Positions 28,833 through 34,989 are shown, counted from the stretch's first letter. The stretch: 64,000 bases of DNA from an uncultured Planctomycetaceae bacterium (GCA_964583095.1 CAZOVB010000003.1:562-64561), one strand, 5' to 3'. The notes: generated by a model not told the origin, from the letters alone. Made by a program: numbers and translations.

Positions 28833-29282
28833 TCAAAGCGCGGGTTCGGGATCGTCGGCAACGGCGAGACGCTCGACCTCCTCCAGGACACGGGGCAGGT
28901 CCAGGCAGCAGAGAAGCAGGTCCCCCCAGGTCGTGAGGCTCTCGACCAGCGGCTCGATGCGGGCGGGCAGTTGGCCCGACGGGATGTGCCTGTCCTCAGG
29001 CTCTGCCGCTACGACATCTCCCGTCCTGTCGACGAGAAGCCCGGCCTGGACCTCATCGCACTCCACAACCACCACCGCCCTGCGAGGCGAGTCGGTTTTC
29101 TCCAGGCCCATCATGCCCGACAAGTCCAACACGGGCAGAAGGCTGCCGCGCAGGTTCATCAGGCCCGAGATCACATCGCTGCATGGAGGAACGGGAGTCA
29201 ACGGGCCCGGACGCAGGATTTCCCGGACGTGGTGGACGCGCAACCCGAACCATTTGCTGCAGATACGCACCAGAAGCATGCC
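28833..29282 (-). CDS. CheW-like coupling protein
   Basis: ...[22 protein letters not shown]...[18 protein letters not shown]... matches the CheW domain consensus. The start is taken at the internal Met (MLLVR); the ORF continues upstream to 29366. Confidence 0.6.
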
Positions 29283-29627
29283 ATTGTCGGGCCGGATATC
29301 CCCGGGGGCGATCTGCCGGTTCGGCTGGGATCGCTGGATTCTTCTTTGCAAAGGCCTGGGACGCAATGGATTCTCCCGTTTAGGGCAAAATCGCTGCCTG
29401 CCAACAGAGTATTCTCATCGGTCATCCCGGGGGCCAACTTGTCCAGGAAGCCTGTTGAGCCGGCCGGCCCCGCAGGGCGCAAAGCTAGTCAAGTCGGGGG
29501 GTCTTTGGGACGATGTAAGGGCCGTATAGATGGAAATACTCCAAAGGGCACCGAGCTTCTGAGTATTGGCGTGGTCTCCCCCTGGCTTCGCAGTCTCGGA
29601 AGACAGGCACCGTCAAGGGGCACCACG

Positions 29628-32387
29628 ATGTACACCAGAGCCGCCGGGATTCTGCGAAAATGTTTTCCCGGCAAAGATTTCCGAGCCCCAGCCTTGCGGG
29701 AACTGCCGGCCATTGCACTCCTGGCAGCGGGGATGATTCTGATTCTCCTTGGCTGGACACAAGTGGCCCTGGCGACCCAGGGAGTCTCCATCCTGCTCCT
29801 GGCGGGGCGACTGGCCGGTTCCTTCAGCAAACGACAGACGTGTGAGTCGGAGGATCCGCAGCAGCGGCGGCGGGTGCTCGACGCGGCCGGGCAGGATCGC
29901 TGGGAGCCGATGGACAGCCTGGCCCTGCCTGCCCTTCTCAGCGACGCCGATGGCAACATCCTCCAGGCCAACGCCTCGGCGAAAGAGTTGCTGGGCTCTG
30001 TGCCTCTGGAGGGCATGAACCTGGTCGACCTGGTCGTTCCGGGACGGCAGGATGATCTATCCCGCGTCCTGGATTCCCCCGCCGGTCAAGGCGTCTGCGA
30101 AGGCGTCCGCTTCCCGGCAGAAGACGGCAGCGACCTGGAGATTCAGATCAACTCCCGGAAACTGCCTGATGGTCATGGACTCCATCTGCTGGTGGATGTC
30201 ACATCCCATGCCCGGCGGGAAAGCCGGCTCCAGGAGGCAAAGGACCGGGCCGAGACACTTCTGGCCGAGCTGGAATCGACCAATCAACAGCTCGAAAGCG
30301 CCTTGGAACGCGCCAACACCTATGCCGAAGCAGCCGAAGTGGCCAATGCCGTCAAGAGCGACTTCCTGGCCAATATCAGCCACGAGATCCGCACGCCCAT
30401 GAACGGCATTATCGGGATGACGGAACTGGCCATGGAGGCCGTCCACGACCCCCAGACAGGCGGGTACCTGCAGATGGTCAAGGAGTCCGCCGATCAACTG
30501 CTGGATATCATCAACGATCTGCTGGACTTCTCGAAGATCGAGGCCGGGCGGGTTGAACTCGACCCGATCGGCTTTTTGGTCCACGATTGCCTTCACGACC
30601 TGCTGGGGCCCCTGGAGACCCGGGCCCGCAAAAAAGGCCTCTGCCTGAGCCTGCACCTCTCGCCGGACGTACCCAATGCGCTGATCGGCGATCCGGGCCG
30701 GCTTCGACAGGTGCTCAACAATCTCGTCCACAACGCCATCAAGTTCACCGAGCGGGGGGAAATCCAGGTCGGACTCGAGCAGAGGCAATCCGAGGAAGCT
30801 GAACATTGCCTGCACTTCTGGGTCCGTGACAGCGGGACCGGCGTCCCCGAGGACAAGCAGCGGCGGATTTTCACGGCCTTTGAAACCGCCGACAACACCT
30901 CGACCCGGTCGGTGGATGGAACCGGCCTGGGCCTGGCCATCTGCGCCAGCCTCGTGCACCTGATGGGAGGAGAGATCTGGCTGGAAAGCAAGCTGGGCGT
31001 CGGCAGCACGTTCCATTTCACAGCCGTCTTCCAGGAGCCCGGCTCGGAAGTCTGCAAATCCCTCCAGGCTGCAGGGGGAGACTGCCTGACCGGAAAACGC
31101 GCCCTGATCATCGACGAAAAGCCCTCCTCCAGTGAGGTCTTCCAGCGGATGATGTCTTCCTGGGGCATCCTGGCCAGTACGTGCCTGAGCCCCCGGGACG
31201 GGCTGAATTTACTGGCACAGGAGGATTCGGAGCAATCGGCCTTTGACATGGTCCTGATCGAACGGGACATGGCCCAGATGGACGGGTTCCAGGTGGCGAC
31301 ACGAATCCTGGGACGCTGCGCCAAGAACCCGCCGCGAATTGTGATGATCGCCTCGGCCGGCAAACGCGGGGACGCCGCAAGGAGTCGCTCGATCGGGCTG
31401 GCGGGCTACCTGACGCGTCCGATTCGCTCCGAGCAGTTCCGAACAGCCCTTACGATGGCGCTGGGAACGACCCCCGTCACCGACGCCGACCTGGTCACAC
31501 GGCACAGCGTTCGGGAACACCAGAGCCGCCTGCACCTGCTGCTGGTCGAGGACAAGAGGATCAACCGGGAACTGGCCCGGGACCTGCTCACCCGCGCCGG
31601 ACACGAGGTCTGCTGCGCCCACGACGGCCTGGAAGCCCTGGAAGCCTGCCGCCGCGAACAGTTCGACCTGATCCTCATGGATCTGCGCATGCCCGGCATG
31701 GACGGCCTGGAGGCTACCCGTTGCATCCGACAGGAAGAGGCCGACGGGAGTCGCCGAACCCCCATCGTCGCCATGACCGCCCAGGACTTGCCCGTCGAGA
31801 ACAGCCGCCTGCGGGATCTGGGAATCGATGCCTTTCTGGCCAAGCCCATCAGTGCAGGATCCCTGCTGGATACCGTCGCCCATGTCGTCCGCACAGCCCC
31901 TCAGAGCCCTTCGGAGGTCCCCTTGCCCCTGCCCGCCGAGCAAATCCAGGATCCGTCGGTGGCACAGACGTGGGCACAACCGGAGGATCCGCCCGCCCAA
32001 AGCGAAACTCCTGCCGGCCAGGCCGACGATAGTGACAGCTTCCAGGAGGCGACCGCCCTGGAGAGAATGGGAGGGGATCGCGACCTGCTGGCCATGCTGG
32101 CTTCCGAGTTCCTCCAGGACGCCCGGGCAATGGTCACCCAGATGAAAGAAAGCCTCCAGGCCTCGGATTTCCATGCCCTGGCCGAGACCGTCCACAGCAT
32201 GAAGGGGGCAGTCAGCCTGTTCACCATGTCCCGCCCCCGCAGGCTCTGCCTGGAACTGGAGCAAAGCGCCAAGGCCGAGGATCATGAGGGGGCCAACATG
32301 ACTCTCGCCAAATTCCAGGAAAGTCTTACAGCTTTGTGCTCCCGACTCGAAGACTATGTACGGGAGAACCAATCATGCAGGTCCTGA
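29628..32387 (+). CDS. hybrid sensor histidine kinase: TM - PAS - HisKA - HATPase - REC - REC - Hpt
   Basis: The start is the ATG at 29628 (MYTRAAG...); the upstream part of the ORF overlaps the CheW-like gene on the opposite strand. H-box [18 protein letters not shown] and G-boxes [18 protein letters not shown] are present. Two receiver domains (…ALIIDEKPS… and …[18 protein letters not shown]…[14 protein letters not shown]…) are followed by an Hpt domain (…[12 protein letters not shown]…). Confidence 0.8.
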
Positions 32388-34003: not shown

Positions 34004-34377
34004 CCGCCCGAATACTGACTGTAGACGACGATCCTTCCATCCGGACGACCGTCGGGATGGTCCTGGAAGAGGCCGGCATAGAAGTCGAATTCGCCTCCAG
34101 CGGCCCCGAAGCCATCGAGAAGATCCAACAGGGGTTCAGGGGCCTGATCCTCCTGGATATCATGATGCCCGAGATGGATGGATGGCAGACGCTGGACACC
34201 ATCGTCCAGAAAGGCCTCTACCCGGGCAACGTTGTCTGCATGCTCACGGCCGTGCTGGACCCGGGGCCGGAAATGGAGTCTCTCAAGGAATTCGTCCTGG
34301 ATTACGTCCGCAAGCCCTTTACCCCCGAAGAACTCGTCGCCGCCGTAGAAGACGCACTGAGCTACTGCCTCGCCTGA
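34000..34377 (+). CDS. receiver (REC) domain corresponding to the CheB N-terminal domain; it ends at an in-frame UGA followed by the methylesterase domain
   Basis: [17 protein letters not shown]...LILLDIMMPEMDG...KPFTPEEL has the canonical receiver-domain residues. The ATG at 34000 sits within ATGA, overlapping the previous stop. Confidence 0.75.
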   Translation: MTARILTVDDDPSIRTTVGMVLEEAGIEVEFASSGPEAIEKIQQGFRGLILLDIMMPEMDGWQTLDTIVQKGLYPGNVVCMLTAVLDPGPEMESLKEFVLDYVRKPFTPEELVAAVEDALSYCLA

Positions 34378-34413
34378 CATCCCGCTCCCGCATCCAGATG
34401 GAAATCGATTGAT

Positions 34414-34989
34414 ATGAGCCTTAACCTGGTCCTGCTGGGCATCTCCACCGGTGGCCCGAAAACCTTACGCAAACTCGTGCCCAACCTCGGACGCCTCAAT
34501 GCGGCCGTGGTCCTGGTTCAGCATATGCCCAAGTTCATCAACCAGTCCGTCTGCAAGACCCTTGCAGAGTCTTCCGAGATGGACGTTTACCTGGCCCGCG
34601 ACGGCCAGAAGATCCAGACCGGGGGATTTTACGTAGCCCCCAGCGAAGTCCATCTGAGCCTCTCTGCCAACAACAGCATCCAGCTCCAGGGCGGCCCGAA
34701 GGTCTGCTTCGTCTGCCCCTCGGTGGATGTCATGATGAAATCCGTCACCCGTTCCAGCGGCAAGATCCTTGGAGTGGTCATGACCGGCATGGGCAAGGAC
34801 GGCGCGGAAGGCCTGGCCCATCTCAAGAGCATCGGAGCAGAAACCATCGCACAGGACGAGCAGAGCAGCGTGATCTGGGGCATGCCCGGCGCGGCCGTGG
34901 AAATGGGCGTCGCCGATCACGTCCTCGCTCCGGAAGATATCGCTCAGTTGATCCGGTCCCGGGTGGGCGTGGCACCGGTGGCGGCCTGA
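34414..34989 (+). CDS. CheB-type protein-glutamate methylesterase catalytic domain (no receiver domain on this ORF)
   Basis: GISTGGP (Ser nucleophile), VQHMP (His) and MTGMGKDGAEG (Asp) together form the CheB catalytic triad context. It is in the same reading frame as the upstream receiver ORF, separated by one TGA and 12 sense codons. Confidence 0.8.
   Translation: MSLNLVLLGISTGGPKTLRKLVPNLGRLNAAVVLVQHMPKFINQSVCKTLAESSEMDVYLARDGQKIQTGGFYVAPSEVHLSLSANNSIQLQGGPKVCFVCPSVDVMMKSVTRSSGKILGVVMTGMGKDGAEGLAHLKSIGAETIAQDEQSSVIWGMPGAAVEMGVADHVLAPEDIAQLIRSRVGVAPVAA

Follow-up and report, generated by a model that had tools for sequence, protein, structure and literature searches.

A probable CheA-less, HisKA-driven split-CheB module, accompanied by CheW, in an uncultured Planctomycetaceae bacterium

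What does a chemotaxis-type methylesterase do in the company of ordinary histidine kinases? Textbooks attribute sensory adaptation to covalent modification of the CheB/CheR type, which is taken to belong to chemosensory arrays built on CheA. The question is raised by a stretch of 64,000 nucleotides (nt) from an uncultured Planctomycetaceae bacterium (GCA_964583095.1 CAZOVB010000003.1:562-64561; this whole stretch is called the window here), in which five genes between positions 28,833 and 34,989 encode a CheW-like adaptor, two HisKA-type histidine kinases (HK1 and HK2), a single-domain receiver (REC) and a CheB catalytic domain. Our analysis indicates that this locus is a CheA-less, HisKA-driven module with a split CheB, here joined by a CheW, and that it neither belongs to an established class nor amounts to something categorically new. 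The five genes and their domains had been described in a first-pass annotation of the DNA, and every one of its domain calls is upheld by Pfam. The features of the locus are as follows (aa, amino acids).

28833..29366, minus strand: CheW-like adaptor (PF01584, E=1.1e-25)
29280..29627, no strand: divergent intergenic region between CheW and HK1, 348 bp, presumed site of shared promoters
29628..32387, plus strand: HK1, hybrid histidine kinase, 919 aa (Pfam)
32375..34003, plus strand: HK2, REC-PAS-HisKA-HATPase kinase (Pfam)
34000..34377, plus strand: single-domain REC, 125 aa (PF00072 Response_reg, E=4e-23)
34378..34413, no strand: spacer of 36 nt after the TGA stop of REC, in the CheB frame (frame comparison)
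34414..34989, plus strand: stand-alone CheB catalytic domain, 191 aa (PF01339 CheB_methylest, E=5.7e-54)

The genes for HK1 and HK2 overlap by 13 nt (32375-32387) and the stop codon of HK2 overlaps the start codon of REC by 4 nt (ATGA at 34000-34003), both exactly where they had been reported, and these overlaps are consistent with coupled translation. No match to the sigma-70 consensus was found in the 348-bp region between CheW and HK1, a negative result that carries no information in a planctomycete. The arrangement is not a chance juxtaposition, since an identical gene order turns up in many unrelated genomes.

HK1, whose true start is the ATG at 29628, is matched in Pfam by PAS, HisKA (5e-21), HATPase_c (5e-28), a CRE1-type first receiver, Response_reg (2e-38) and Hpt (1e-10), giving the order transmembrane segment, PAS, HisKA (H252), HATPase, pseudo-receiver (E545), REC (D685) and Hpt (H856). 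The first of the two receivers is termed a pseudo-receiver since Glu545 occupies the position of the phospho-accepting aspartate. The hydropathy profile presents one clear hydrophobic segment at aa 26-48 with a weaker one after it, from which we infer that HK1 is anchored in the membrane with its PAS domain in the cytoplasm. With HisKA, HATPase, REC and Hpt in one protein and the His, Asp and His residues kept, HK1 is an unorthodox hybrid kinase; its best partial matches in NCBIfam are BarA, TorS and ArcB, all far below the equivalog cut-offs. Orthologues of 45-80% identity are found in the related loci L002, L004, L007 and L096. In HK2 the key residues are D52 of the REC domain and H310 of HisKA, so that every His and Asp phospho-acceptor site of the operon (H252, D685, H856, D52, H310 and, in the single-domain REC, D53) is intact. 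HK2 is the most widely kept neighbour of the REC-CheB pair, its catalytic half being 50-52% identical in Scalindua. Its PAS domain carries a four-cysteine motif (32960-33030, aa ~199-217) of the form C-x7-10-C-x5-C-x2-C, which is present in all six Phycisphaerae-type orthologues examined and not in the Scalindua-like L093, and which is a candidate site for sensing (redox) by means of Zn or Fe-S.

The CheB catalytic domain scores 182.9 bits against PF01339, for which the cut-off is 24, and has an intact triad, S11/H37/D129, aligning to Ser164/His190/Asp286 of Salmonella CheB (1CHD, 1A2O). The chain of 191 aa has no N-terminal receiver, REC being encoded in the separate upstream gene, and it matches the NCBIfam models NF001965/NF009206 in their C-terminal part only (positions 154-335 of 340, with 187-190 bits against cut-offs of 293-342). 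The receiver residues D9-D11, D53, T83 and K105 are all present in REC. Throughout the family of stand-alone CheB proteins, a REC gene 44-69% identical to that of the window is found upstream of CheB in every locus with upstream sequence, usually directly upstream and 0.65-1.2 kb off in L027 and L009, while in the protein P0086 (324 aa) the same type of REC is fused to the same type of CheB through a linker of about 10 residues. Because such a REC lies upstream in all these loci and the fused form exists in P0086, REC and CheB together constitute a split CheB, a relationship which the first-pass annotation had overlooked. On the evidence that follows, the split is genuine and old.

An alternative is that the two genes are the remains of one, a degenerate or split pseudogene in which REC-CheB was broken by a nonsense TGA, or a gene whose TGA is read through to give a fused CheB. 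REC and CheB do lie in the same frame with a single TGA (34375-34377) between them in the window, as they do in L002 and L004, and the spacers of these three loci (36, 30 and 33 nt respectively) are multiples of three. However, the frame is shared in just six of the 24 family loci with REC within 400 nt of CheB, where about eight would be expected by chance, the stop codon of REC varies across the family (TGA, TAA or TAG) with two in-frame stops in L011, and the peptides that the spacers of the window, L002 and L004 would encode (HPAPASRWKSID, PERTRARKFP and PTRKGKKESIP) are unrelated to one another. On these grounds the shared frame is judged coincidental, read-through or selenocysteine insertion at the in-frame TGA was rejected and, with the peptide unconserved and the frame so seldom shared, 34378-34413 is an ordinary non-coding spacer. 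More than 100 independent homologues are moreover stand-alone proteins of ~190 aa with a start codon of their own, and the functional residues are complete in both halves, making a pseudogene or a read-through product highly improbable.

Is the CheB then wired to HisKA kinases, as had been proposed, or is it served by a CheA encoded elsewhere? The window had been described as having no CheA, CheR or methyl-accepting chemotaxis protein (MCP), and none was found in the 64 kb either by Pfam scans of 51 window open reading frames (ORFs) or by locally built hidden Markov models (HMMs) of CheA, CheR, MCP, CheD and CheC run on all ORFs of at least 90 aa, the module being flanked by ~29 kb of window sequence on each side. 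In particular there is no H-kinase_dim or CheA-like ORF in the window and no match to PF00015, PF01739 or PF03705. For relatives the search covered flanks of 10 kb, and the occurrence of CheA was compared between 30 loci of the stand-alone-CheB family and 56 canonical loci with fused CheB. As the local CheA and CheD models cross-match HATPase, REC, Hpt and HDOD proteins, more than 300 bits were required for a true CheA, and calls were checked with Pfam. By this measure a true CheA is present in none of the 30 family loci, for which the best score was 125 bits, from cross-matches to HATPase, REC and Hpt, as against 41 of the 56 canonical loci. An apparent CheA in L017 turned out on the Pfam check to be CheV.

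The family to which this CheB belongs is extensive. An exhaustive search of a protein library clustered at 50% identity returned 266 representatives at E<=1e-30. The stand-alone forms score 150-300 bits, whereas ordinary CheB proteins of 340-370 aa reach at most 145 bits and one CheB-CheB-CheR fusion of more than 1200 aa scores 128. The window protein belongs to a clade whose members are roughly 184-215 aa long. Nearly all of the top 120 homologues have 170-215 aa, the exceptions including three fused REC-CheB chains (318-324 aa). Among species-representative genomes the best match to the window CheB is a Phycisphaerae metagenome-assembled genome (MAG), with 62% identity. The first-pass annotation had suggested the phylogeny of the CheB domain as a check, and a neighbour-joining tree of 105 CheB domains, comprising 27 stand-alone loci together with canonical and MAC1-like domains (the latter are introduced below), was built with 200 bootstrap replicates. 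In 190 of these the smallest clade holding all 27 stand-alone loci left out every canonical and MAC1-like CheB domain, which sets the window CheB outside the canonical chemotaxis CheBs. Two of the top-scoring members of the clade, P0131 (405 aa) and P0132 (383 aa), have two tandem CheB methylesterase domains per chain. In P0132 the Ser-Thr-Gly-Gly motif of the N-terminal domain has decayed to VSGNGQ, and the two domains may be a pseudo-enzyme and an enzyme.

The gene order [REC-(PAS)-HisKA-HATPase]-[REC]-[CheB] is kept across at least four phyla. It is found in Phycisphaerae or close relatives (L002, L004, L007, L088, L094), in Scalindua or anammox-like loci (L008-L012, L087, L093), in Verrucomicrobiota (L016, L023, L028, L029) and, with several REC-kinase genes, in the archaeal MAGs L014, L015 and L020. 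A hybrid kinase ending in REC-Hpt stands upstream of HK2 in the window, in L002, L004 and L007, in the Scalindua loci and in L016/L023; the versions from Scalindua and the Verrucomicrobiota are giant proteins carrying dCache, HAMP, CHASE, PAS and GAF domains. The conserved order of kinase, REC and CheB and the lack of CheA in 30 family loci make the wiring of CheB to HisKA kinases well supported. It is improbable, by contrast, that the locus is an ordinary accessory of a chemotaxis system, with a CheA elsewhere phosphorylating the small REC, the esterase serving as a second CheB and the neighbouring HisKA kinases being functionally unrelated. Many bacteria do have several CheB paralogues, and in L016 and L023 a canonical CheW-CheB-CheR segment comes directly before the module. 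An accessory of this kind is nevertheless hard to reconcile with a kinase-REC-CheB order kept over phylum-level distances with overlapping genes (13 and 4 nt in the window), with the count of CheA genes given above, or with the separation of the clade from canonical CheBs.

How, then, does the module compare with known systems? Among published concepts the MAC systems and the Che3 pathway of Rhodospirillum centenum come nearest to it. The MAC1 and MAC2 proteins (Wuichet & Zhulin 2010) are methyl-accepting coiled-coil (MAC) HisKA kinases with fused or associated CheB and CheR, and are described in two later sources as experimentally uncharacterised (bioRxiv 10.1101/2022.05.07.491037; MiST 3.0, PMC6943060); the former also links a rare class of CheW statistically to MAC1 (bioRxiv 10.1101/2022.05.07.491037). 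This published precedent for CheB and CheR in association with HisKA kinases had been overlooked in the first-pass annotation. The window resembles it in that a CheB-type enzyme is associated with HisKA/HATPase kinases rather than with CheA and in that its CheW echoes the MAC1-linked class, and differs from it in that the CheB, although beside the kinases, is unfused, and in that no CheR is present in the window. Compared with the CheB domains of P0254, a MAC1-like CheB-CheB-CheR fusion, the window CheB is 29-30% identical and falls outside their lineage in the neighbour-joining tree. A MAC-type repeat region was sought in the kinases and none was found: HK1 and HK2 have no MCPsignal match (E<=0.01) and no match to the local MCP model, and no NEEL repeats were found by regular expression in the 3337 ORFs of all loci.

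With canonical CheB (Salmonella, 1A2O/1CHD) the window protein shares the fold and the Ser-His-Asp triad, the domains being 39-44% identical (E=1e-32 to 1A2O), and a receiver as its presumed regulator. Here, however, the receiver is encoded by a separate gene, the kinases are of the HisKA type, CheA is missing from the family loci, the protein falls in a separate clade, and in the rare fused forms of window-type CheB the linker is short. The CheB of Campylobacterota also has no fused receiver, but sits in canonical CheA-based systems and is not known to have a dedicated adjacent REC gene or HisKA kinases. The unorthodox hybrid kinases BarA, TorS and ArcB are like HK1 in their HisKA-HATPase-REC-Hpt order and in the strong partial matches of HK1 to their models, but unlike them HK1 has an additional pseudo-receiver, and the downstream output here is a methylesterase and not a transcription factor. 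In the Che3 system of R. centenum, CheA3 controls the REC-HisKA kinase CheS3 via the receiver of the latter, and CheS3 phosphorylates the single-domain CheY3 (PMC3868531). HK2 has the architecture of CheS3, its gene overlaps that of a putatively cognate single-domain REC of 125 aa, and che-type genes lie around it; on the other hand Che3 has CheA as its upstream kinase, along with an MCP, CheR, two CheWs and a fused CheB (PMC3868531), whereas the upstream kinase of the window is a BarA/TorS-like HisKA hybrid with Hpt, and MCP and CheR are missing from the window. In sum, the locus has no detectable MAC segment and no CheR, follows a Che3-like REC-HisKA logic that dispenses with CheA, and resembles the Campylobacterota in lacking a fused receiver but not in context.

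From these comparisons we propose that a multi-step phosphorelay of HisKA kinases, working without CheA, is encoded here and drives a split CheB methylesterase/deamidase whose most likely substrate is MCP-type receptors encoded elsewhere, a reading which we hold to be probably, if narrowly, correct. In the proposed scheme HK1 would autophosphorylate on H252 and relay the phosphoryl group through D685 to H856 of its Hpt domain, which would then feed D52 in the N-terminal receiver of HK2 and so modulate HK2, as CheA3 does CheS3. HK2, perhaps sensing redox state or a metal through the four-cysteine site of its PAS domain, would phosphorylate the 125-aa REC on D53. Phosphorylated REC would then bind the separate esterase and activate it in trans, just as canonical CheB is activated in cis by its own N-terminal domain. 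The activated esterase would demethylate or deamidate Glu/Gln pairs on a coiled-coil substrate, and the divergently encoded CheW would be the array-side partner of MCP-type receptors. Should receptors be the substrate, a two-component input bypassing CheA could reset the modification state of the receptors.

A substrate other than MCPs had also been envisaged for the esterase, an option which is not favoured since MCP, CheR, CheD, CheX or CheV genes adjoin the same module in other lineages. In L028 and L029 an MCP-hemerythrin gene directly precedes the module and is oriented like it; a PAS-MCP gene is upstream of it in L018; CheD adjoins it in L014 and is no more than 5 kb away in L029, which also has CheR; CheX adjoins it in L088; and in L016 and L023 the giant kinase is directly preceded by CheW, a canonical REC-CheB and CheR. 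Given these chemosensory neighbours and the CheW of the window, MCP-type receptors encoded elsewhere are the probable substrate, the coiled coil of the kinase itself being less probable.

Two of these neighbourhoods merit description in their own right. The proteins encoded at 3743-5842 in L028 and 6191-7885 in L029, from two verrucomicrobial MAGs, are cytoplasmic MCPs with a C-terminal hemerythrin domain, which suggests oxygen or iron sensing; together with the four-cysteine motif of HK2 they hint at a redox, oxygen or metal signal. In the verrucomicrobial L016/L023 (3-10549), CheW, REC-CheB and CheR are followed by a 2056-aa CHASE-PAS-GAF-HisKA-REC-Hpt kinase and then by REC-HK, REC and stand-alone CheB, and thus a single operon-like stretch contains both a fused and a split CheB.

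Several points weigh against the proposed phosphorelay and its receptor substrate. NCBIfam places the stand-alone REC nearer to OmpR-family receivers than to CheB receivers, and for regulation in trans 'as in CheB' the one line of evidence is the fused homologue P0086. The direction and partners of phosphotransfer are deduced from gene order and domain architecture. CheW is missing from L004 and from most members of the family. Finally, no MCP, CheR or CheD lies within ~29 kb of the module in the window or within 10 kb of it in the Phycisphaerae and Scalindua loci, and the receptor substrate is for this reason extrapolated from other lineages.

The same lack of an MCP, in the window as in the 10-kb flanks of the Phycisphaerae and Scalindua loci, speaks for a different and MAC-like possibility in which no MCP is involved and the kinases are the target. 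The esterase/deamidase would modify their coiled coil, the most plausible site being a Gln-Gln pair in the helix ahead of the H-box of HK1, and a classical HisKA kinase would thereby have adaptation by covalent modification built in. MAC proteins, in which a methyl-accepting coiled coil and a HisKA kinase are combined with CheB/CheR, are a published concept, as set out in PMC6943060. The heptad concerned, STNQQLES, resembles one (S/T)xNEELQ repeat unit of the CheB-CheB-CheR fusion P0254, and the window HK1 agrees with the short consensus for MCP methylation, [ASTG]xx[EQ][EQ]xx[ASTG][ASTG]; among the 3337 ORFs the pattern [ST]N[EQ][EQ]L[EQ] picks out just the HK1 orthologues of the window, L002 and L007, and it is also present in L096. 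As all four proteins are orthologues, however, these occurrences amount to one evolutionary observation, and there were too few unrelated BarA-like kinases among the controls for the background frequency of the heptad to be estimated. Moreover, this is a single heptad and not an array of repeats, NEEL-type repeats being found in no locus, and neither kinase matches MCPsignal. The E/Q pair is not kept: L004 has RQ in its place and L016 has YQ, and Scalindua lacks it. In L002 and L007 the consensus breaks down at its small-residue flank, and no nearby CheR would make methylation reversible. The universally kept partner of the split CheB is in any case HK2, the linker of which shows an ordinary S-helix only. 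We therefore think it unlikely that the kinases are the substrate, and the STNQQLES heptad of HK1 is kept as a weak lead.

Where does CheW stand in relation to the module that the proposed phosphorelay would drive? Its ORF reaches a TTG at 29366, whereas the NCBI call for an identical protein has 148 aa (~28833-29279), and the real start is likely near 29279. The PF01584 match spans profile positions 2-137 of 138 and is thus that of a full-length domain, and in an alignment to the CheW structures of T. maritima and E. coli the GxxNLRGxxxPVxDL motif is kept; the CheW call, which had been offered as one that an HMM check might overturn, withstood it (PF01584, E=1.1e-25) with the NLRG motif kept relative to the structures. 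A CheW adaptor is the feature of canonical chemosensory pathways (F/Tfp/ACF of Wuichet and Zhulin) that the window does have. The divergent CheW-HK1 pair is found in four of the five close loci (the window, L002, L007 and L096) and is missing in L004. These loci differ in their distance from the window, CheB being 82% identical in L002 and 62% in L007, and HK1 and CheW 80% and 82% identical respectively in L096.

Between the window and L002 the two CheW proteins are 44-49% identical, as against 82-89% for CheB, REC and HK2 and 60-89% for the operon proteins overall; by this measure CheW is evolving fast. It has almost no close relatives among 5.8 billion proteins. A CheW gene lies within 10 kb of the module in just six of the 30 family loci. 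As most members of the family do without it, CheW is an add-on outside the core, and the pattern of occurrence marks it as a lineage-specific but real addition to the module, paired with HK1 in this Phycisphaerae subclade. The first-pass annotation, in counting CheW as a part of the module, was thus right as regards a real and conserved partnership with HK1 in the subclade, but not as regards a core shared by the whole family.

The genes around the module, given below, include a type IV pilus cluster whose end is ~1 kb from the CheW gene.

7643-10067, plus strand: OmpR-type two-component pair (REC-Trans_reg_C, then a HisKA kinase), ~20 kb upstream
13716-27730, plus strand: type IV pilus cluster with two PilB-like ATPases (MshEN), PilT, PilC and six prepilin-like N_methyl genes (Pfam)
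27771..28754, minus strand: RNase_H_2 (PF13482) protein, 327 aa, 78 nt downstream of CheW (Pfam)
35448..36260, plus strand: ankyrin-repeat protein, after a gap of 459 nt following CheB (Pfam Ank families)
37342-38910, minus strand: long ORF with hexapeptide-transferase repeats near its C-terminus, sharing sequence, in a different frame, with the 3' part of the PilT-like gene
38262-39503, minus strand: PilT-like ATPase, 3 kb downstream of CheB (Pfam)
39751-42676: PSD1/PSCyt2 and DUF1501 genes (Pfam)

The PSD1/PSCyt2 and DUF1501 genes indicate an origin in the Planctomycetota, as does the best genome match of CheB, the Phycisphaerae MAG mentioned above. A 900-aa protein of the pilus cluster has no match in Pfam or NCBIfam, and its gene stays next to the module in L002 and L007. 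The RNase_H_2 protein combines a PF13482 domain, which is related to the PolB exonuclease, with an N-terminus of 150 aa that has no assigned family, and a terminator-like hairpin follows its gene at 27768-27751. The gene is probably co-transcribed with CheW here, yet it is not a conserved partner. It is kept in L002, where as in the window it is the far-side neighbour of CheW, and in L007, where a GH42 gene stands between the two, and it is replaced by PAC2 in L096. With the far-side gene so variable and HK1 constant, CheW and RNase_H_2 were rejected as a functional pair. Homologues of the ankyrin-repeat protein with 42-51% identity are also found after CheB in L003 (of the L002 lineage) and in L004/L005, and are absent in L007; the protein may be an accessory of the module. 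In L007 a tyrosine integrase and a helix-turn-helix gene (11174-14186) lie directly downstream of CheB in the place of the ankyrin gene, which suggests that a mobile element has inserted there. The hexapeptide-repeat ORF is listed from a TTG, but its true start probably lies a long way downstream of that codon.

If the whole clade and this setting are considered together, a broader and more speculative view can be entertained, in which our confidence is low. The stand-alone-CheB clade may represent a separate class of CheA-less module, spread through Planctomycetota, Verrucomicrobiota, some further bacterial phyla and some archaea, in which a classical HisKA phosphorelay would use a split CheB to write or erase covalent marks, by deamidation or demethylation, on receptor arrays or on the coil of the HisKA kinase itself; in this Phycisphaerae lineage it would also have acquired a fast-evolving CheW, and its position at the end of the type IV pilus cluster would hint at control over surface behaviour. 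Were this so, marks on receptor arrays would be a second, kinase-independent input into adaptation, while marks on the QQ heptad of HK1 would give an ordinary two-component system an adaptive memory in the style of an MCP.

The stand-alone CheB family is large and unstudied and occurs in environmentally important anammox bacteria, Phycisphaerae and Verrucomicrobiota, and the components of the module are small soluble proteins that can easily be tested in vitro. The conservation of the split-CheB/HisKA operon suggests either that two-component systems can reach chemoreceptor arrays without CheA or that deamidation or demethylation can tune classical histidine kinases themselves. In both cases the known logic of signalling in bacteria and archaea would be broadened, and there would be a bearing on the evolution of chemotaxis from two-component systems (the MAC hypothesis).

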